A stretch of 64,000 nt of DNA from an uncultured euryarchaeote (GTDB lineage Archaea; Thermoplasmatota; Poseidoniia; Poseidoniales; Thalassarchaeaceae), in NCBI GenBank assembly GCA_937911265.1, contig CALDRG010000057.1, forward strand, positions 19,025 through 83,024, given 5' to 3'. Numbering within the stretch: the stretch's first letter is position 1; the number at the start of each line of letters is the position of its first letter. A program made the translations under genes and the position numbers. The notes below the pieces were generated by a model. The model made no database searches. It worked only from the letters and a program-made list of their open reading frames with translations, and was not told the origin of the DNA. Below are positions 3,230 through 63,059 of the stretch, piece after piece.

Positions 3230-4042
3230 TCACTCTTCTTCGTGAGGGACAATCTTAGCTGCAATCAGTAGGAACGCAGTGTGCCCCATAGGCTGGTTTC
3301 CTGGTCTGACACCACCTTTGCTAGCCTTGACCCACTTGCGCTCAATCATCTCGCCCGCCCATTCGATGACCAGCCCCTGCCTCTGAGCGGATTCCCAGGA
3401 TCTCTCAAGTTGCACGGTGGTCGGGCAGTAGCAGGCCAGTCTGCCTCCAGCCCTCAGCAGTGGCTCGATAGTCGGGACAACCTGCCAAGGCTCGGCCACA
3501 TCGATGATTGCCGCATCGAGAGATTGACAGATTCCCGAAACAGCTTGTCCGACTTCGATTAGATCACCGTCAATCAGGTGCCAATCTGGGAACTCAGGTA
3601 GTACTTCGGCTAGGCGCTCCATGTTGGCCCGTCCGACCTCGGCATGCTCTGGCCTAGATTCGACTGAGATGAGGGTGCCAGACGAGCCTAGGACATTGGC
3701 CAGATGCATAGCTAGACCGGCCGAACCATGACCGCCCTCGAGCACCTTTGAGCCGACGCCGATGCCCATCCAAGAGATGAGGAATCCAGAATCCTTGATG
3801 CCAATGACTTGAGCCCTCCTAGCCATGTTCCTGCGGGCCTCGGGGAGAGCCGGGTCGACGATGGACAGGGACTTCTGGCCGACAGTAATCCTATCTCCAA
3901 TTGAGTATCCGTTCAGGAGTTGCTCGACATCAAATCTCCCTAGTCCCTTCACCTTGACTTCGCCGGGTGTTCGCTGCAGCAGGTAGGCGCGACCGTCGTC
4001 CTCCCTTAGCGCGACCCACTCGCTGCCTCCGTCCTCGTTCAC
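3230..4042 (-). CDS. trmI: tRNA (adenine-N1)-methyltransferase (TrmI/Gcd14 family)
   Basis: AQVIGIKD, VLEGGHGSAGL, ESRPEHAEV, AAIIDVAEPW, YCPTTVQL, HTAFL motifs. Confidence 0.88.
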   Translation of the reverse strand: MNEDGGSEWVALREDDGRAYLLQRTPGEVKVKGLGRFDVEQLLNGYSIGDRITVGQKSLSIVDPALPEARRNMARRAQVIGIKDSGFLISWMGIGVGSKVLEGGHGSAGLAMHLANVLGSSGTLISVESRPEHAEVGRANMERLAEVLPEFPDWHLIDGDLIEVGQAVSGICQSLDAAIIDVAEPWQVVPTIEPLLRAGGRLACYCPTTVQLERSWESAQRQGLVIEWAGEMIERKWVKASKGGVRPGNQPMGHTAFLLIAAKIVPHEEE

Positions 4043-4152
4043 GCTTCGGGCCCGTCCTCCGCCTACTCAAGTTCTCCGGCTCTCTAAAGAGCCGTCCCAG
4101 CAACTATCCTGAGTACAGCATGGTTATACGGCGCCACGTTAGGGATATTTTA

Positions 4153-7100
4153 ATGACTATAGTGCGAATGCTGTCAATCGTTCAACCGCTGACTCTGGCA
4201 ACCCTGGTGGTCATGATGTCCTTCATTGGCTTCATGACGATGGACGAGAAGGTCGAGAAGGTCGAAGAAAGAGAGCAATTGATGCAGGAGGAAGCGCCGC
4301 TTTACGCTACCAGTCCAGGTCACCCTGTGTTCGGCGAGTACGTCGGCGCACACTGGTGCCCTCCTTGCATGGACAGCGCATCACCCTCGCTTTACAATCT
4401 GAAGACGTCAAATCCAGAGGATTTCACATTCGTCTCAATCTTTGAGTCCGAATCAGATGGTTGGCCCTCGGACAGCCCAATAAATCGACAGGACCACGTC
4501 ATGGCAGCCTCAAGTGGTTACCCTACATTCTCTTTCGCCGATGAGCAGAGTGGGACTTGCTTCAAGGTTGGCGCAGCCGGAACAAACTACTACGACGCAG
4601 ACTACACGAACGGTGGCTGCATGAGTTCGGATGTCTCCGACTACGCTGTCGAGCTCTCAATCGCTCTCGATTCAGTGACCAACGATGTCACCATCACCGT
4701 AGAGTCGACATACCTCGGTTCATCGTCATCCGTGACTGTCTACCTCTACGCAGCAGTGACTGAGAAAATTGGCGCTGATGCCTACGACAATGGTGTACGA
4801 CCTCACCACAACTGGAGAGAGTGGCTGCTGAACAGCAACGGGGACGGCTTCGAGGAGATGACTCTGACTCCGAACAACGTCGCTGAGAGGACTTGGACTG
4901 TTCCACTCAACACCGTTAGGGCCACTTCGGGTAACACCCAGTACGAGAACTTCTGGCCGGTAGTCGCTCTGATGGATGGCCCACACACATCCTACAACGA
5001 CTTCCTAACTGCAGCGGACCTAGACATGGCACCGCTCATCGATATCGGCATCTCTGATTTCGATGTCGTCAACCAGAATGGCAACCTCGGATTCGTGCCT
5101 GGAGACACACTCGACCTAACCATCGAGGTCACCAACTTCGGTGTCGATCCCTACAATGATGGCGGCGAGATATCGATTTACGAGCTCGTCGGCCTAGACG
5201 AGGTCTACGCCGGAGGTTCGTCAATCACCAATCTCGCTTCGGGAGGGACCCAGGTCCTCACGATCCAGTTCGACACCTCTGACATAGAGCCCTACGCATC
5301 CGGCTCCACGACCTTCAGGGCGAAACTCTCGGGACTGACAGGTGACCGTGTCTCCTCCAATGACTACACGGACGATAATGCCCTGCATGACATGGCCCCG
5401 GTCGCCAACCAACCAACCGCCATCGCTTCCACCTCCATAGAGAGGGGCAGTACAATTCAGTTCGAGTCCACGGCTCTGTCTAACGACATGGTCGACGACA
5501 TGTCATCAATGACGCCGACTCTGCATTACGCTGAGTCAGGAACTGACATGTGGGACAATTCATGGATAGCTTCCTCCGACTTGGTCGGCAGCGGAGGAAA
5601 CGCTCGCTATGTGTTTACCATCGACGCACCTCTCAATGCTGAGGTGGGAGATTACGATCTCAGGGTCCGCTGGGTGGATGCTGGTGGCCAGTACGGCGAC
5701 TGGTTGATATCCGAGGAGGCCTTTGAATTGCGTAACGCCCTGCCTGTGGTGCTGAATAGCGATTACCCGCAGTACGCAGGAATGCCGACTGTCAAGGTTG
5801 AGACTCAGGAAAGAGTCTCCATAATGGGTCTGGTGTACGATGCCGAGACCCCGCTTTCAATGCTGCAGATTGACAGCAACTCGCCCGAGTTCATCGAGTG
5901 GGACTCGTCCTCGCTTGAGATTGTTGTCGAGTTCAGCGCGGTCATCAGGGACAGCCAAGGCAATCCTATTCCTCAGGGTATATTCGTCACTATCAATGAC
6001 GGTGATGACAGCAACTCAGGCATGATGATGTTCAACGTGGTGGAGAATGGCGCCCCAAGGTGGGCACCGGTCCCTTCGCAATCGTTCAATGAGGGTGGCT
6101 CGGCCAGCTTCGGTCTGTCTGAGTACCTTTCAGACACTGATGACAACGGCTATCTGGTGCCGGTTTCTGGTCTGACCCTAGAGTTGCTGGGGATATCTAA
6201 CGGAGCCCTAGTAGATGCAAGTATCTCGGGACATACCCTCTCCGTCAGTGCCATAGATGACGACTCCATTGGCGTCGTAGACCTCACATTGAGGGCCAGC
6301 GACGGAGTCAAATTCTCGGACACCGTCATCACGTTCCACGTACTGAATGTCAACGACGCCCCGCGGATGGAAATGGCTGGAATTGACGAATTCACCGTCG
6401 AGATTGGAGACAGGATAACCCTAGAACTCCTTGACCTAATGACGGATATCGATGACCCCGACGAGGAAATCTGGGCGTCTGCGATGACCTTCGTTGCGGG
6501 TGCCGCCCAGTTCAACCCGATTACCGGCATCCTGACCATGGCTTGGGAAGAGGCTGGGACTGAGATTGTGACCATCACTCTAGAGGATAGGCACGGCGAC
6601 GCCAGTGCCTACCTGATTACGGTCACTGTTGTTGACGATATGCCACTCTACTGGGATACGGACCTAGTTGCGACTTTCAGCACCATCGAGTATGGTTCAA
6701 ATCCCTCTGTTATCATCGACAATGTTGGTCAGCACGAGCTCAGTAACATCAGGATTACTTGGACGGTATGCAATAGTATAACTGGAATCTGTCACTCCTC
6801 GGGAGTTTCGCACAACTACGGGCCATTCATCGTCTATCCAGTGAGTGGCGAAGGACTTGGGGTAGGGGACTACGTCACCCTCTCTGCTGAGGGCGAAGAC
6901 GAGAACGGATTCGATCGAGTCACAGAGGAGCAGTTCCGAGTATATGCGACTGAGGTCGAGGAGGTCATCGAAGAACCCGTTGAGGAAGAGGCCAATACCA
7001 AGACTGGCGGCATAAGTTCGATGATGTCAGCAGGCCTCATAACTCTAGGACTAATGCTGTCAATCGCTCTTGTACTGGCGCTGGCCATCGTCCTGCGCCG

Positions 7101-7308
7101 ACAAAGACTCGACTCGGAGTCGGCTATCGATTTCGCTTCTGAGATTGAGGCGTATGAAGGAAACGACTCCTACTCTACCGATTTGACCGGAGAAACCCCT
7201 CCTCCTCCTCCGATGACCCCCCCGCTGCCACCTGAGGGCCTACCGCCGGGTTGGACCATGGAACAGTGGCACTACTATGGTGCAGAGTACCTCCACCGAC
7301 GTGAATAA
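4153..7308 (+). CDS. Large membrane-anchored surface protein: thioredoxin-like CxxC/Omp28-like domain, Ig/CARDB- and cadherin-like domains, C-terminal TM helix and Pro-rich cytoplasmic tail
   Basis: N-terminal hydrophobic segment; HWCPPC; DNGVRPHHNWREWL; NVNDAP and ASDG cadherin-like motifs; TM LITLGLMLSIALVLALAIVL; tail PPLPPEGLPPGWTMEQW. Start uncertain (4120-4168). Confidence 0.7.
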   Translation: MTIVRMLSIVQPLTLATLVVMMSFIGFMTMDEKVEKVEEREQLMQEEAPLYATSPGHPVFGEYVGAHWCPPCMDSASPSLYNLKTSNPEDFTFVSIFESESDGWPSDSPINRQDHVMAASSGYPTFSFADEQSGTCFKVGAAGTNYYDADYTNGGCMSSDVSDYAVELSIALDSVTNDVTITVESTYLGSSSSVTVYLYAAVTEKIGADAYDNGVRPHHNWREWLLNSNGDGFEEMTLTPNNVAERTWTVPLNTVRATSGNTQYENFWPVVALMDGPHTSYNDFLTAADLDMAPLIDIGISDFDVVNQNGNLGFVPGDTLDLTIEVTNFGVDPYNDGGEISIYELVGLDEVYAGGSSITNLASGGTQVLTIQFDTSDIEPYASGSTTFRAKLSGLTGDRVSSNDYTDDNALHDMAPVANQPTAIASTSIERGSTIQFESTALSNDMVDDMSSMTPTLHYAESGTDMWDNSWIASSDLVGSGGNARYVFTIDAPLNAEVGDYDLRVRWVDAGGQYGDWLISEEAFELRNALPVVLNSDYPQYAGMPTVKVETQERVSIMGLVYDAETPLSMLQIDSNSPEFIEWDSSSLEIVVEFSAVIRDSQGNPIPQGIFVTINDGDDSNSGMMMFNVVENGAPRWAPVPSQSFNEGGSASFGLSEYLSDTDDNGYLVPVSGLTLELLGISNGALVDASISGHTLSVSAIDDDSIGVVDLTLRASDGVKFSDTVITFHVLNVNDAPRMEMAGIDEFTVEIGDRITLELLDLMTDIDDPDEEIWASAMTFVAGAAQFNPITGILTMAWEEAGTEIVTITLEDRHGDASAYLITVTVVDDMPLYWDTDLVATFSTIEYGSNPSVIIDNVGQHELSNIRITWTVCNSITGICHSSGVSHNYGPFIVYPVSGEGLGVGDYVTLSAEGEDENGFDRVTEEQFRVYATEVEEVIEEPVEEEANTKTGGISSMMSAGLITLGLMLSIALVLALAIVLRRQRLDSESAIDFASEIEAYEGNDSYSTDLTGETPPPPPMTPPLPPEGLPPGWTMEQWHYYGAEYLHRRE

Positions 7309-55295: not shown

Positions 55296-56288
55296 ATGGC
55301 AAGGGCGCCAGCGTGTGCAACACGCACGGTTTCCATCATTGCAGTGCTGACTACCCTGCTCATTGTTTCCGCTCCCTCCGTTGCCGCAGATCAGGAGGCC
55401 ACCTGGGTGCGAACATCCCCTGGTGTGTGGATGCTGGAGGACTCTCAGGGCCTGCTGCACGAGCCGCAGCCTGAGGCAGGACTGTTCCTCAGCCCTGTCG
55501 TGGGCGAGTTGGTAGATGTTTCAGTGAGTGGTTCGACGGCAGGGACATGGTCCATCAATGGAATCCTCTCATATGGCCAGCAGGAATTCCAGCAGGACGC
55601 CCCGGATTCTCAAGGTAGAGAACCGATCCTAGATTTCTCACTGCCAGTCGTTCCATATATCTCTGCATTCCTCGCAGTCATCCTTTTCTCTCTCGCTTTG
55701 GTTTCAGCGGGAGATGAGCCGACAAGGGCGAAGATGGTCAGGTCCATGGGCCGCTTCTCACAACTCAGGGTCACTGAGGGTTCCGGCACACTGGCCGGAA
55801 CCCACCAGAGAGGGCGACTCGAGGGCTTTCTTACTGCACATCCCGGCTGCCACCTCTCTGGCATAATTCGTGCTCTTGAGATGGGTAATCATCAGGCAGT
55901 GCACCATCTCAGAATTCTAGAGAACGAGGGCCGTGTGTGGTGCAGGCGCGACGGTCGCCTACTGCGCTACTACACTTCGGCAGTCGACCGCGCCGCAGAG
56001 TTATCCAACCTACCTCGTCCGGTCGATGCCAATCAACTCAGTGATGTGGCTCTGATGGTGCTGCGCTCGATAGTCGAGCAAGAGGATGGACGACCCTCTC
56101 CGACACAGAGGGAATTAGCATCGAGACTTGAGACTAGTCAGCAACTGGTGGGGCACCATCTGAAGAGACTTGAATCGCAGGGACTAATCACCCGCAAAAG
56201 GAGTGGATTGCGCACCAATCGCCAGCTTACGGAAGAGGGTATGAGGCTATGGGCGACGCTTGTAGAACCTCTCTCTTCGAGGCTTTGA
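55296..56288 (+). CDS. Membrane-anchored winged-helix transcription regulator (signal peptide, extracellular domain, TM, two wHTH)
   Basis: Signal peptide ending PSVAA; TM VPYISAFLAVILFSLALV; wHTH1 HPGCHLSGIIRALEMGNHQAVHHLRILE; wHTH2 TQRELASRLETSQQLVGHHLKRLE. Confidence 0.8.
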   Translation: MARAPACATRTVSIIAVLTTLLIVSAPSVAADQEATWVRTSPGVWMLEDSQGLLHEPQPEAGLFLSPVVGELVDVSVSGSTAGTWSINGILSYGQQEFQQDAPDSQGREPILDFSLPVVPYISAFLAVILFSLALVSAGDEPTRAKMVRSMGRFSQLRVTEGSGTLAGTHQRGRLEGFLTAHPGCHLSGIIRALEMGNHQAVHHLRILENEGRVWCRRDGRLLRYYTSAVDRAAELSNLPRPVDANQLSDVALMVLRSIVEQEDGRPSPTQRELASRLETSQQLVGHHLKRLESQGLITRKRSGLRTNRQLTEEGMRLWATLVEPLSSRL

Positions 56289-56340
56289 CAAATCCAATGA
56301 CCCACTTTCCTTTAAGGTGAAAAGAGGCGCCCTCTGGTTG

Positions 56341-59319
56341 ATGTACAGGACTTCCCGAGAAAGAAACAACCGTCGCCGAATCCATACTGGTCTTTTCCTA
56401 GTTGCCCTGATGCTGGGTTCTGGATGCTTGGGTGCCACCGATGAGATTGTTGAGCAGCCAGAGCCGTCGGTAGTGACTGCCAGTGTGACTATCGAAGGCT
56501 CGCCGACCTCGGCCAGCAATCTGATCATCGCAAACGCTGTCATTGAGGAAGGAACCGCCCCTTTCATCGCCAACTGGCGCCTCGATGGTGTACTCGTCCA
56601 GACATCCAACAGCTTGGCCTACGATGCAGGATTCCTCTCAGTTGGGACTCACACCATCGAGGTAGAGTTGACTGATTCGATGGGTGCTTCTACTGTGTCA
56701 ACGGTCATATTCACACTGATTGAGCCTAACAGGGCGCCTACTGTCTCACTTGAACTTCCTTCCGAGGGCATTGCAGGAGTTCCCATTGCTTGGTCCGTGG
56801 ACGCTACCGACCCTGATGGCGACAATCTAGTGGTAGAGGTGGACTTCTCGGATGGCGCCACTCTGCGCGACCTCTCTGGTCAGCATATTTGGGGTGAGCC
56901 GGGAACCTACTCGGTCCGTGTATCGGTCACTGACACCTCGGGCTTCCTAGCCACTGCGCAGGAATCGATAAGAATAGACGACGCGAAAGCCCCATTGCTC
57001 ACCGTTTCAACCAATCCCTCCCCTCAGGGGCGCATACACCTCAATCTGGCCGGTGAACTCAGCATCGCCACTGTAGCAGAGGATCCAATGGGACCAACCT
57101 CTGTCTCGATCGACTGGGGCGACGACTCCACATCCGACCCGGCTATGGTCGATGAATCGCATCAGTACTCCGAAGAAGGAATCTACGTGGTCCGTGTGAC
57201 TGCCACAGGACCCACTGGAATTACCACTGAGCGCGTGTTCCACGTCGAAGTGGTTTCAGTCGCCGACGATCTAGAGGCCGCGCAGCTCCAAGATGAGCTG
57301 GAGGGTGAGGCTGAGGAGCAGTTGGAAAACGAAGTCGAGCAGGGGCTCGACCCTGACGGCGATGGTACTGTCGACGAGGTTACCGAGGCCCAGAGCGACT
57401 CTGAGTATGACTGGCAGTCTGATTTCGACTCAGACGGGGATGGATACTATGATGACGACCAAGAGGTCGATGACTGGGTGACCACCGATGAGGAATCAGT
57501 GCGCGACGAGGTTGGCGACGAGGAGGAGGCCGACACCATCCCGAGCGACCCCCTGATGATTCAGAGCAGCGTCGTCAACGAGGATGAGATCCCCTCGGAG
57601 GACGAACTCGCCCCAATCCCACTCGAAAACGCAGCGAGGACTGAGATAGTCGAACCCGTGTTCGACGAGGCATGGGGAGAAATCGATGACTCCTCTATGC
57701 AAGAGCAGACCTACTCGCGTTCCATCTCGCAAGTAACGGCCACGTGGTGGAACGACAGTTTCTGGGAGGACTGGGATAACGACGGGGTCGCAGAGACCCT
57801 CTGCCACAGGACGGTAGGCGTGTTCTGGTTCGACTCGGACGGCGTCCCGGGTCCCGAGCGCATCATCCTAGTTCGCAACACTCAATGCTCGCACGACCGC
57901 GACGGCGACGGGCAAGATGACCTCTTCTTCACACGCTTCAGAGGGATGGACCTCGTCGATCAGAATTCAGATGGCATACCCGAGCGACACGACGTCCTGA
58001 CCAGGACCGTGTGGACTTGGGACAATGGCACCTACGAGGACGTCAACATACACCTGTTCGTTCATGCCCGGACCGATGCCGACCAAGATGGTAATCTGGA
58101 GCGCAGGGTTATCTTGAACCGGGATCAGAGGATGGTCGATCAGGGCATCGGCTCGGTCCTGACCGCCTACTTCTCGCACTCTCGACTCATCCATCGCATC
58201 GATGGTAACGATGACGGCACTCCCGAGCGCTGGATGGCAATCGACCACACTTCATGGGTCTGGGACCCCACCGAGGACGGCAATGCCGACCGCCATCGTG
58301 ACAACCTGCGAGCGGTCGTAGTCAGGGACACCAACTCCGACGGCAACGTCGATGTGGTCCGCGCGCTTCAGCAGAACACCGCTCAGTTCGACAACGACTC
58401 CAACGGCGTCATCGAATTGCAGTGGACATGGCGAGCGGGGGTCCTCAAGGTCGACACCGACCACGACGGCGACCTCGACTACACCGCCCGCATGCGAGGC
58501 TGGCACCAGCACTGGGACTGGGGGATGGTGGAGCACCACATCCACCGGTTCGCACTGACTCGCATGGTCGACGACGATGCGGATGGGACGCTTGAGTGGA
58601 AGCAGAGGATCATACACATGTCCAATGCGACCGACTGGGACTTCGACCACTACCTAGAGCAGCGCGAGTCATACACTGCTACCCTGACATGGTGGGACCC
58701 CAATGAGGATGGCTCTGAGGAGCATGTCTTCAGACGGGTTAGGGAGACGTTGTACCTCGATGAGCACGCCCACGGATGGACGTATATCTCCGAGGAGACG
58801 CGCTCGATGGAGCTATGGCGCAACTCATGGCAGCAGCCGCATACCATCCGTATCAGAGTGGCCACCTTGACAGCGTGGGACAACAACTCAGACGGCAGTC
58901 CTGATACCTACCACTATCTGAGTCGGACCTGGCAGGCAACTGATACCAACGACGACGACTTCCTCAACCGTAGGGTGTTCCACCGTCACTACATGGGGCA
59001 GAGGGACGACAACGCTGACGGCAACGTGACTTCCGCTGTCAATAACAACATCTGGCACGCGAGAAACCTCTCGCTCTCTTCCACCGGTAGCATCGAGGTA
59101 CTGCAGGAGGGCTATCTCTCACACTCCGTGTTCGAGTGGAACATCAATCCCCAGGGTCATGCTTACCGCACCAACAGCACTTGGGTCGGATTCCAGATTG
59201 ACTACGTCGCCGGCACCTCCCAAGGCCTCACCGTCACGGTCATCACCATAGATTCCGACCAGGACGGCACGCCCGAATCGCAGACCATAACCACCGCAGG
59301 ATCGGGCAACCCTCCCTGA
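56341..59319 (+). CDS. Large predicted lipoprotein: PKD/Ig domains, acidic linker, C-terminal 21-aa periodic DxDxDG repeat domain
   Basis: RRR followed by hydrophobic stretch and GSGC; PKD motifs (DFSDG, HIWGEPGTY, DWGDD, HQYSEEGIY); periodic motif counted by hand. Start 56317 or 56341. Confidence 0.85.
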   Translation: MYRTSRERNNRRRIHTGLFLVALMLGSGCLGATDEIVEQPEPSVVTASVTIEGSPTSASNLIIANAVIEEGTAPFIANWRLDGVLVQTSNSLAYDAGFLSVGTHTIEVELTDSMGASTVSTVIFTLIEPNRAPTVSLELPSEGIAGVPIAWSVDATDPDGDNLVVEVDFSDGATLRDLSGQHIWGEPGTYSVRVSVTDTSGFLATAQESIRIDDAKAPLLTVSTNPSPQGRIHLNLAGELSIATVAEDPMGPTSVSIDWGDDSTSDPAMVDESHQYSEEGIYVVRVTATGPTGITTERVFHVEVVSVADDLEAAQLQDELEGEAEEQLENEVEQGLDPDGDGTVDEVTEAQSDSEYDWQSDFDSDGDGYYDDDQEVDDWVTTDEESVRDEVGDEEEADTIPSDPLMIQSSVVNEDEIPSEDELAPIPLENAARTEIVEPVFDEAWGEIDDSSMQEQTYSRSISQVTATWWNDSFWEDWDNDGVAETLCHRTVGVFWFDSDGVPGPERIILVRNTQCSHDRDGDGQDDLFFTRFRGMDLVDQNSDGIPERHDVLTRTVWTWDNGTYEDVNIHLFVHARTDADQDGNLERRVILNRDQRMVDQGIGSVLTAYFSHSRLIHRIDGNDDGTPERWMAIDHTSWVWDPTEDGNADRHRDNLRAVVVRDTNSDGNVDVVRALQQNTAQFDNDSNGVIELQWTWRAGVLKVDTDHDGDLDYTARMRGWHQHWDWGMVEHHIHRFALTRMVDDDADGTLEWKQRIIHMSNATDWDFDHYLEQRESYTATLTWWDPNEDGSEEHVFRRVRETLYLDEHAHGWTYISEETRSMELWRNSWQQPHTIRIRVATLTAWDNNSDGSPDTYHYLSRTWQATDTNDDDFLNRRVFHRHYMGQRDDNADGNVTSAVNNNIWHARNLSLSSTGSIEVLQEGYLSHSVFEWNINPQGHAYRTNSTWVGFQIDYVAGTSQGLTVTVITIDSDQDGTPESQTITTAGSGNPP
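57769..59319 (+). repeat. Cryptic protein-level tandem repeat, 21-aa period (63 nt), about 25 units
   Basis: Of the first 21 units starting at DWDNDG, 18 are exactly 21 aa and three are 18-19 aa; no obvious DNA-level identity between units. Confidence 0.88.
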
Positions 59320-59357: not shown

Positions 59358-59435
59358 GCTCCTGTGGTGTAGCACGGCCCATCATTCCGGGTTTTCATCC
59401 CGGCGACTCGGGTTCGAATCCCGACAGGAGCACCA
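59358..59435 (+). tRNA. tRNA-Glu (TTC)
   Basis: Acceptor GCTCCTG/CAGGAGC, anticodon arm CCGGG-TT-TTC-AT-CCCGG, TTCGAAT loop, encoded CCA. Confidence 0.95.

Positions 59436-62982: not shown

Positions 62983-63059
<77 letters not shown>

Follow-up and report, generated by a model that had tools for sequence, protein, structure and literature searches.

A 21-residue repeat domain, predicted to form a long calcium-dependent beta-meander, in a probable surface protein of Marine Group II archaea

The gene and the layout of its protein

The DNA analyzed here, a 64,000-nt stretch of contig CALDRG010000057.1 (hereafter the window), carries archaeal markers, namely the small subunit of DNA polymerase D, a helix-turn-helix (HTH) protein of the HVO_0163 type and SufS/SufE, and displays 81–97% amino-acid identity to metagenome-assembled genomes (MAGs) of Marine Group II (MGII; Poseidoniales, Thalassarchaeaceae, Ca. 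Thalassarchaeum). Its open reading frame (ORF) 56317–59319 (+), to which all amino acid (aa) positions below refer, encodes a 1000-aa protein bearing a domain of 21-aa repeats with calcium-blade-like motifs, which is the subject of this work. A preliminary description, made from the sequence of the window, had placed this domain at 57769–59319, a span that indeed equals aa 485–1000 and the stop codon of the ORF. The protein is arranged in the order: signal sequence with lipobox, about three PKD/Ig-like domains, acidic linker, and the repeat domain, predicted by AlphaFold2 (AF2) to be a beta-meander whose turns are calcium (Ca) loops:

56317..59319, +, whole gene of the 1000-aa putative surface protein (ORF list; orthologs with identical gene order in 18 species genomes; presence in metatranscriptomes)
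56317..56427, +, N-terminal basic/hydrophobic signal sequence with a lipobox-like LGSGC ending at Cys37 (read from the sequence)
56449..57276, +, about three PKD/Ig-like domains, aa ~45–320 (Pfam PKD_4 and PKD; 2–3 stretches)
57277..57723, +, acidic D/E-rich linker, aa ~321–469, ~150 aa (sequence; aligns with equally acidic linkers of orthologs)
57724..59316, +, predicted Ca-loop beta-meander domain, aa 470–1000, 26 predicted strands or 25 nominal 21-aa units (AF2, periodicity statistics, ratio of nonsynonymous to synonymous substitutions, dN/dS)

The N-terminal half of the protein passes the Pfam gathering scores of PKD_4 (65.2 bits, cut-off 27) and PKD (49.9 bits, cut-off 23.5). A lipid anchor is predicted at Cys37; the putative lipobox L-G-S-G-C37 of the window is one residue longer than the canonical [LVI][ASTVI][GAS]C, and the orthologs P0005–P0012 possess LAGC, FSGC, FAGC or SSGC at the matching position. 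The linker holds three Dx[DN]x[DN]G hexamers, overlapping or adjacent (DPDGDG at aa 345, DSDGDG overlapping at aa 369/371), and may therefore bind Ca2+ too; a stretch of the form 'YDW..DFD.D.DG' is kept in the equally acidic linkers of orthologs. The repeat domain is itself strongly acidic (88 D+E vs 44 K+R).

The repeat unit and its family

Parsed from aa 485, the domain falls into 25 units, in agreement with the approximate number given previously; 18 of the first 21 units are exactly 21 aa long, units 5 and 13 having 18 aa and unit 18 having 19 aa. The strict Dx[DN]x[DN]G turns, reported as thirteen, were recounted at the same number, with hexamers starting at aa 485, 527, 548, 587, 629, 671, 692, 713, 752, 794, 855, 897 and 979, whereas composition-preserving shuffles of the domain (n = 5000) gave 0.15 hexamers on average and never more than 3. 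The autocorrelation of Asp reached 0.38 at lag 21 (the maximum of 5000 shuffles at any lag being 0.20), with a second peak of 0.24 at lag 42. An acidic residue at position 9, ascribed earlier to most units, occurs in 15 of the 25; there are 12 complete nine-residue loops with this residue included, and the thirteenth strict hexamer lacks the position-9 acid. Only two Cys residues are present in the domain, C496 in unit 1 and C524 in unit 2, as had been noticed. The remark that the repeat is not obvious in the DNA was correct as well: no 63-nt tandem array was detected with Tandem Repeats Finder, and the short DNA matches come from the loop codons only, being mostly spaced at multiples of 63 nt. 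The repeats are therefore old and diverged.

The loop had been termed an 'EF-hand-like calcium-blade' motif. The calcium-blade part of this designation stands, as the loop is of the nine-residue integrin type defined by Rigden et al. (2011, PMC3123361), and the EF-hand part does not, since a true EF-hand loop comprises 12 residues. The Dx[DN]xDG motif followed by D/E is a Ca2+-binding hairpin connection in propeller blades (PMC3123361, PMC8023676), where it forms the A-B hairpin of VCBS/integrin propellers (Pereira and Lupas, 2021, PMC8023676).

An exhaustive profile search against 1.84 billion representative proteins returned 258 matches, 16 of them with E < 1e-30, and a further search with the family alignment added only two proteins. 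The family counts given below refer to the 150 matches listed (top 150; representative clusters). The spacing between motifs in these matches was 21 aa in 401 cases, 20 aa once and 22 aa 4 times, and a second, separate population formed a broad peak at 49 aa (45–53), corresponding to genuine FG-GAP/FG-GAP_3 propellers with Pfam E-values of 1e-127 to 1e-272. True members with 21-aa units that passed the criteria make up 60 representative clusters. Nearly all complete ones possess an N-terminal signal/transmembrane stretch or lipobox; those looked up are named only 'hypothetical protein', and the traceable ones originate from MGII/Thermoplasmata MAGs or from archaeal gene contexts. The consensus of 394 distinct units is D-x-[ND]-S-D-G-N-P-[ED]-x12, with D/E at position 9 in 91% of units and R/T/K/H, but no acid, at position 12. 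The x12 segment consists of beta-prone residues: it is rich in V/I/T/Y/F/W and essentially free of Pro, D making up less than 5% and C less than 2%. The number of units varies from ~10 to 36 across the family; in the orthologous group of the window protein the 25-unit register is fixed down to ~20% identity, with 28 invariant columns.

No significant Pfam match was found in the members scanned: P0018, P0021, P0009, P0036 and P0044 had no match, and P0017 and P0019 gave sub-threshold matches to FG-GAP_3. Nor does any family of Pfam or NCBIfam, or any PDB sequence, cover the domain in the window protein or in its true relatives, in keeping with the preliminary description, which recognized no named family in it. 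In the searchable literature nothing specific was found on this fold, on the repeat or on envelope/surface proteins of MGII. The domain defines a repeat family that had no name so far and whose traceable members are all archaeal, and the ~60 related clusters among the matches listed would justify a new entry in domain databases. Three candidates were rejected as members: P0098 and P0034 are look-alikes removed by composition filters and Pfam, and P0059 has a period of 22–23 aa made by TSP3_bac repeats. P0098 (Maribacter aestuarii, WP_430682121.1) contains at aa ~600–1070 about 22 near-identical Cys-rich 21-aa repeats (DSDSDGVPDGCDICAAGDDSV), standing between an FG-GAP_3 propeller and a sorting tail of the type IX secretion system; they are TSP3-like and distinct despite the equal period.

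Predicted fold and its alternatives

With an alignment of 23 orthologous sequences, AF2 predicted the domain as ordered and all-beta, with a mean predicted local distance difference test score (pLDDT) of 92.0 and a predicted template modelling score (pTM) of 0.76, all five models lying at pLDDT 90.9–92.0. The model consists of 26 consecutive strands, each of 12–18 residues, with zero helix. Its non-strand segments match the nine-residue motifs residue-for-residue (e.g., model residues 16–24 DWDNDGVAE and 79–87 DQNSDGIPE), and the three short units are modelled as turns of 4–5 residues. A structure prediction of this kind had been proposed in the preliminary description together with its opposite outcome, disorder lacking a beta-hairpin register; the ordered model speaks for the long antiparallel beta-meander with Ca loops as turns that was suggested there. 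The first predicted strand comprises aa 472–484 and lies ahead of the start assigned earlier; the previously delimited span is thus real, and its start at aa 485 is ~15 aa too late, the corrected domain being ~57724–59316. An earlier AF2 run on 5 sequences had given a pLDDT of 50, informative for secondary structure at most, and a fold search with that model yielded no match.

The candidate Ca loops and the two Cys residues are listed below; the loop rows are based on the strict motif and the AF2 model unless stated otherwise, and 'invariant' means invariant across 11 divergent orthologs. Occupancy of these loops by Ca2+ is suggested by the identity of the motif with that of experimentally characterized calcium blades (PMC3123361).

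57769..57795, +, Ca loop of unit 1, DWDNDGVAE, aa 485–493 (strict motif; non-strand segment 16–24 of the model)
57802..57804, +, Cys496, located 10 residues ahead of loop 2 (found together with Cys524 or missing together with it in all lineages examined)
57886..57888, +, Cys524, located 10 residues past loop 2 and predicted to form a cross-strand disulfide with Cys496 (496+524 = 506+514)
57895..57921, +, Ca loop of unit 3, DRDGDGQDD (motif, model)
57958..57984, +, Ca loop of unit 4, DQNSDGIPE (motif, model segment 79–87; D, N, G, E invariant)
58075..58101, +, Ca loop of unit 6, DADQDGNLE (motif, model, ortholog alignment)
58201..58227, +, Ca loop of unit 8, DGNDDGTPE (motif, model, ortholog alignment)
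58327..58353, +, Ca loop of unit 10, DTNSDGNVD (motif, model)
58390..58416, +, Ca loop of unit 11, DNDSNGVIE (motif, model; D, N, S, G invariant)
58453..58479, +, Ca loop of unit 12, DTDHDGDLD (motif, model)
58570..58596, +, Ca loop of unit 14, DDDADGTLE (motif, model)
58696..58722, +, Ca loop of unit 16, DPNEDGSEE (motif, model)
58879..58905, +, Ca loop of unit 19, DNNSDGSPD (motif, model; DNN..G invariant)
59005..59031, +, loop of unit 21, DDNADGNVT, strict hexamer with a non-acidic position 9 (motif, unit parse)
59251..59277, +, Ca loop of unit 25, DSDQDGTPE (motif, model; D, G invariant)

Two further lines of evidence bear on the register of the strands. Cys496 and Cys524 occur together in nine divergent lineages and in all 18 species genomes, four lineages lack both, and neither is ever found alone. 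Each lies exactly 10 residues from loop 2 (496+524 = 506+514), which places them face to face on the two arms of an antiparallel hairpin of 10 residues or more; by the strand assignment of the model, this is the hairpin of strands 2 and 3. A Cys496–Cys524 disulfide is predicted on these grounds, in keeping with the cross-strand bridge envisaged previously, and the pair supports a register of one long strand per unit without reliance on AF2. Furthermore, the intact loops form an unbroken series in units 4, 6, 8, 10, 12, 14 and 16, and the short or degenerate ones are those of units 5, 7, 13, 15 and 17. Such an alternation corresponds to the alternating edges of a meander and explains the 42-aa super-period. 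The 12-residue segments between the loops have no conserved turn position (turn-formers 0.1–0.3 throughout) and essentially no Pro. Both the alternation of the loops and the turn-free, Pro-free segments agree, independently of AF2, with one long strand per unit.

By motif, the domain is most readily compared with the calcium-blade propellers (PF01839; PF13517/VCBS; PVL lectin, rhamnogalacturonan lyase, PilY1), which likewise use the nine-residue Dx[DN]xDGxx[DE] loop for joining antiparallel strands, are extracellular and repetitive, and are found alongside PKD/Ig domains in surface proteins. The feature that defines such blades, a loop with D/E two residues later between antiparallel strands, is found here in the 12 complete loops, which join adjacent strands of the model. 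The domain might accordingly be read as one or more diverged FG-GAP/VCBS propellers, with the 42-aa double unit as a four-stranded blade and each 12-residue segment as a short hairpin. The loop is identical to that of calcium blades (PMC3123361), the family profile retrieves many true FG-GAP proteins with E = 1e-5 to 1e-20, some relatives give sub-threshold FG-GAP matches, and in an hhalign comparison a single FG-GAP_3 blade of 49 aa pairs with a double unit of 42 aa (probability 93%, E = 4e-7), the 'GNGDGtF' loop of the blade being matched to the second Ca loop and a longer strand-turn-strand segment to each 12-residue strand. We nevertheless regard a propeller as quite improbable. The FG-GAP match that had been named beforehand as a competing outcome was not obtained on the window domain, where PF13517 (FG-GAP_3) reached 7.6 bits (E = 7.8, cut-off 26.9) and PF01839 was absent from the matches, whereas real propellers of the search show the E-values of 1e-127 to 1e-272 cited above. 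Propellers have a period of ~45–60 aa and one loop per four strands, and their motif spacing is broad (45–53 aa), as opposed to the exact 21 aa and one loop per strand observed here; their blades show turn-former peaks of 0.7, in contrast to the ~12-residue strands without internal turns; and their blades are radial, whereas the AF2 model has long continuous strands in a single 26-strand sheet with Ca loops on both edges. The listed top 50 PDB fold matches of the model contain barrels, belts and an Rhs shell, and no toroidal propeller. Finally, a blade would part Cys496 (strand A) from Cys524 (strand D), yet the two co-vary.

A distant origin of the 21-aa unit from calcium-blade hairpins is plausible from the profile comparison. 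Such ancestry is not proven, since much of the 57-column alignment is dominated by three loops, and motifs of the Dx[DN]xDG type are known to arise convergently (PMC3123361). Since the 'GNGDGtF' loop falls on the second Ca loop, the alignment also suggests that the 49-aa FG-GAP_3 blade may itself be an internally duplicated pair of hairpins. The relatives P0032, P0061 and P0068 are FG-GAP_3 propellers and were compared with the double unit of the family.

An array of EF-hand/lanmodulin-like or TSP3-like loops for Ca or lanthanides, alternating with short helices or irregular segments and acting as a metal buffer or binder, appears very improbable. EF-hand arrays such as lanmodulin do share closely spaced DxDxDG loops with the domain, and EF-hand proteins are its only PDB sequence matches (lanmodulin best, E = 3e-5 with the family profile; NCBIfam LanM, E = 2e-4 on the window domain). 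However, the LanM score of 21.4 bits stays below the cut-off of 135, and each unit has to be gapped by 3–4 residues in the alignments. EF-hand loops are of 12 residues with the bidentate Glu at position 12, flanking helices and a spacing of 24–25 aa, while the domain has nine-residue loops, no position-12 acid and an all-beta prediction. TSP3_bac (PF18884) and the Cys-rich TSP3-like repeats resemble the domain in the period of 21–23 aa (22 aa in bacterial TSP3), the DxDxDG Ca loop in every unit and the occurrence in surface proteins, but their units lack a beta-strand and contain a second cluster of acidic residues along with conserved Pro/Cys or a short helix. A TSP3 match, the other competing outcome named beforehand, was not obtained: the window protein had no match to TSP3/TSP3_bac (E <= 10), and the D/C-rich signature of TSP3 is missing. 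The V/I/T/Y/F/W-rich strand segments without Pro, the helix-free model at pLDDT 92 and the Cys register, which agrees with a beta-sheet, also oppose such an array.

A period of ~21 aa is characteristic of YD repeats too. A YD/RHS shell, considered on account of this period and of the 'YDNxSDG' motifs of P0004, was rejected: RHS_repeat of Pfam had no match in the window protein (E <= 10) or in the relatives, and the Rhs core 8qjd_B gave a template modelling (TM) score of 0.07 with a probability of 0.16.

The three-dimensional form was addressed by Foldseek, as proposed in the preliminary description, and no structure superposed on the model. In the PDB there was no global match to the confident model (TM <= 0.39, root-mean-square deviation, rmsd, 20–36 A), and in BFVD the TM score was at most 0.45, to an unnamed protein. 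Ranked by E-value, the leading PDB fold matches were SlpA (30 strands), an Rhs shell and LptD (26); TonB-dependent transporters and the apoB-100 beta-belt came next. The belt, which is open, gave the best PDB TM score (0.33/0.39). These giant meanders (LptD and SlpA barrels, apoB-100 belt, Rhs/YD shells) have in common with the domain dozens of consecutive antiparallel strands; they do not superpose on it globally (TM 0.07–0.39) and possess no Ca loops, and the domain differs further in its archaeal host and in lacking a lipid-facing amphipathic pattern. The appearance of SlpA, LptD and the 22-stranded transporters among the best E-values, at Foldseek probabilities of 0.8–1.0, could point to a closed, water-filled beta-barrel or tube of ~26 strands serving as a pore, cage or conduit; the even strand count, fixed at 25–26 units in the orthologous group, and the pTM of 0.76, which implies a defined global shape, fit this form. 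It is, however, an unlikely one, as the TM scores to the 22–30-strand barrels are only 0.14–0.22 with rmsd 24–36 A, the best TM belongs to the open belt, and inside/outside hydrophobic alternation was found in none of the 26 strands (even/odd difference <= 0.25). In addition, the unit number varies across the family, an archaeal host would lack an outer membrane, and the domain is at the end of the linker, far from the membrane anchor. In view of the low TM scores to barrels of the same strand count, the variable unit number and the non-membrane context, we lean toward an open, curved sheet rather than a closed barrel.

Possible role, conservation and genomic neighbourhood

We consider it rather probable that the repeats constitute the distal domain of an exported, probably lipid-anchored MGII surface protein, in which the 25 units of Ca loop plus strand make up one 26-stranded Ca2+-dependent sheet of an unnamed family; the continuous meander with loops on both edges is predicted by the AF2 model. 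Each unit would contribute the nine-residue loop D-x-[DN]-x-[DN]-G-x-x-[DE] and then one ~12-residue beta-strand. The loops would act as hairpins between neighbouring antiparallel strands and would fall alternately on the two edges of the sheet, one edge keeping its intact loops (even units 4–16) and several loops of the other having presumably become tight turns. Seawater Ca2+ (~10 mM) may fill the 12 complete loops, and possibly the thirteenth that lacks the position-9 acid, neutralizing the acidic clusters and locking the hairpins, and the predicted disulfide would clamp strands 2 and 3 in the N-terminal hairpin. This would yield a rigid Ca2+-dependent beta-platform, kept at a distance from the membrane by a lipid-anchored stalk of PKD domains and the acidic tether. 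As both faces of the sheet show strong conservation of their strand surfaces, the platform most likely works by fixed contacts with proteins or ligands, serving as a scaffold, a platform for binding or a component of the envelope, and less likely as a spacer. The family perhaps descends from calcium-blade (FG-GAP/VCBS) hairpins without forming a propeller.

Several points weigh against this interpretation. The fold prediction was made from only 23 sequences, and AF2 leaves Ca2+ out. The strands are not amphipathic (period-2 and helical moments and even/odd hydrophobicity gave no signal above shuffles) and carry ~40% bulky hydrophobic residues on both faces. As both faces are also conserved, they should pack against something outside the model; a free single-layer sheet with such faces would be odd, and self-association, folding back or a partner is implied. 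Calcium binding, the disulfide and lipidation are all inferred, and the LGSGC lipobox deviates from the canonical form. The hhalign link to FG-GAP_3 could mean that the family is nearer to propellers than the model suggests. The functions in view, a scaffold or binding platform or an envelope lattice, are candidates. Lastly, the distant members P0004, P0009 and P0017 sit among unrelated housekeeping genes, and there is therefore no conserved operon partner.

In MGII itself the gene is well preserved. It is single-copy in the window and has a syntenic single-copy ortholog in 18 species genomes, which share the neighbourhood DP1, HAD, PIN, VTT, transmembrane HTH gene, repeat-protein gene, tRNA-Glu, SLOG, SufS and SufE. 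The repeat domain has a constant length of 531 aa, free of indels, in 17 of these genomes and 532 aa in L012. In the most distant species it retains 81–87% identity, vs 60–77% for the N-terminal half, its conservation being comparable to that of SufS. The dN/dS ratio is 0.06 overall at dS ~1.3 (strands 0.07, loops 0.04), which indicates that the domain is under strong purifying selection. The gene is transcribed in seawater, being found in at least 16 metatranscriptome assemblies from there, and in four of them its contig depth, a poor measure of expression, was similar to that of housekeeping neighbours.

These data bear on whether the domain could be a module of an S-layer-like, Ca2+-dependent, self-assembling envelope lattice of MGII archaea. 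Calcium-dependent S-layers are known, e.g., in Caulobacter (PMC5425405). The core, single-copy, syntenic gene encodes a Ca-rich protein, predicted to be membrane-anchored, for an environment with 10 mM Ca2+; both faces of the sheet are strongly constrained, as fixed self-contacts would be, and being partly hydrophobic and non-amphipathic they need a packing partner. On the other hand, contig depths similar to those of housekeeping neighbours are not those of a dominant protein, and S-layer-level expression was not seen in them, though depth is a weak measure; S-layer proteins tend to evolve rapidly, whereas the conservation of this domain equals that of SufS; and the oligomerization is putative. 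A lattice role therefore seems to us unlikely on present evidence. Similarly doubtful is the more specific proposal of an open Ca2+-stapled 26-strand sheet of ~12 nm (~0.48 nm per strand, canonical geometry), with metal sites lining its two edges, that self-associates by its conserved faces into an MGII envelope lattice and constitutes a new fold. If true, it would mean that metal-locked hairpins replace a hydrophobic core, which would be a new architectural principle, and would give the first structural handle on the surface of abundant uncultured ocean archaea.

Under the preferred reading, a platform-forming 26-stranded sheet, a known Ca-loop motif, possibly of calcium-blade ancestry, is set in a new and apparently unprecedented architecture. 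Elsewhere the Dx[DN]xDG loop is known only from occasional use in propeller blades, EF-hands and folds like them, whereas in this domain it serves as the universal turn element of a repeat of exactly 21 residues. If the prediction holds, the known uses of the motif would be widened by a natural beta-architecture held largely by metal sites at its edges, with relevance to fold evolution and protein design. As a part of a strongly conserved, expressed core surface protein of abundant and uncultured MGII archaea, the domain lends itself to structural studies on recombinant protein, to the identification of cells with antibodies or tags, and to studies of cell contact with particles, polymers or viruses.

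Directly upstream of the repeat-protein gene, at 55296–56288 (+), lies a gene for a regulator with an N-terminal signal, an extracellular part, one transmembrane helix, and winged-helix domains of the HVO_0163 and MarR types. It occupies this position in all 18 Thalassarchaeum genomes and in front of one 43%-identical ortholog; the whole neighbourhood is syntenic there, so its adjacency gives no functional link, and it is not a neighbour of the distant members P0004, P0009 and P0017. Immediately downstream is tRNA-Glu(UUC) at 59358–59435 (+). Further along, tRNA-Thr(UGU) at 62983–63059 (-) has a depth of ~130 in metatranscriptome contigs, vs 2–10, by far the highest in the 14-kb stretch. In two of the genomes, L006 and L018, an insertion of ~2 kb, absent from the window and the other genomes, separates the SLOG-family gene from SufS, the start of the latter being at ~10397 vs ~8348. 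Another ORF of the window, 3967–7308 (+), encodes 1113 aa, has no Pfam match at 1e-5 and is unrelated to the 21-aa repeat; with its beta-rich Ig/cadherin-like body, C-terminal transmembrane helix and Pro-rich tail, it looks like another large surface protein.

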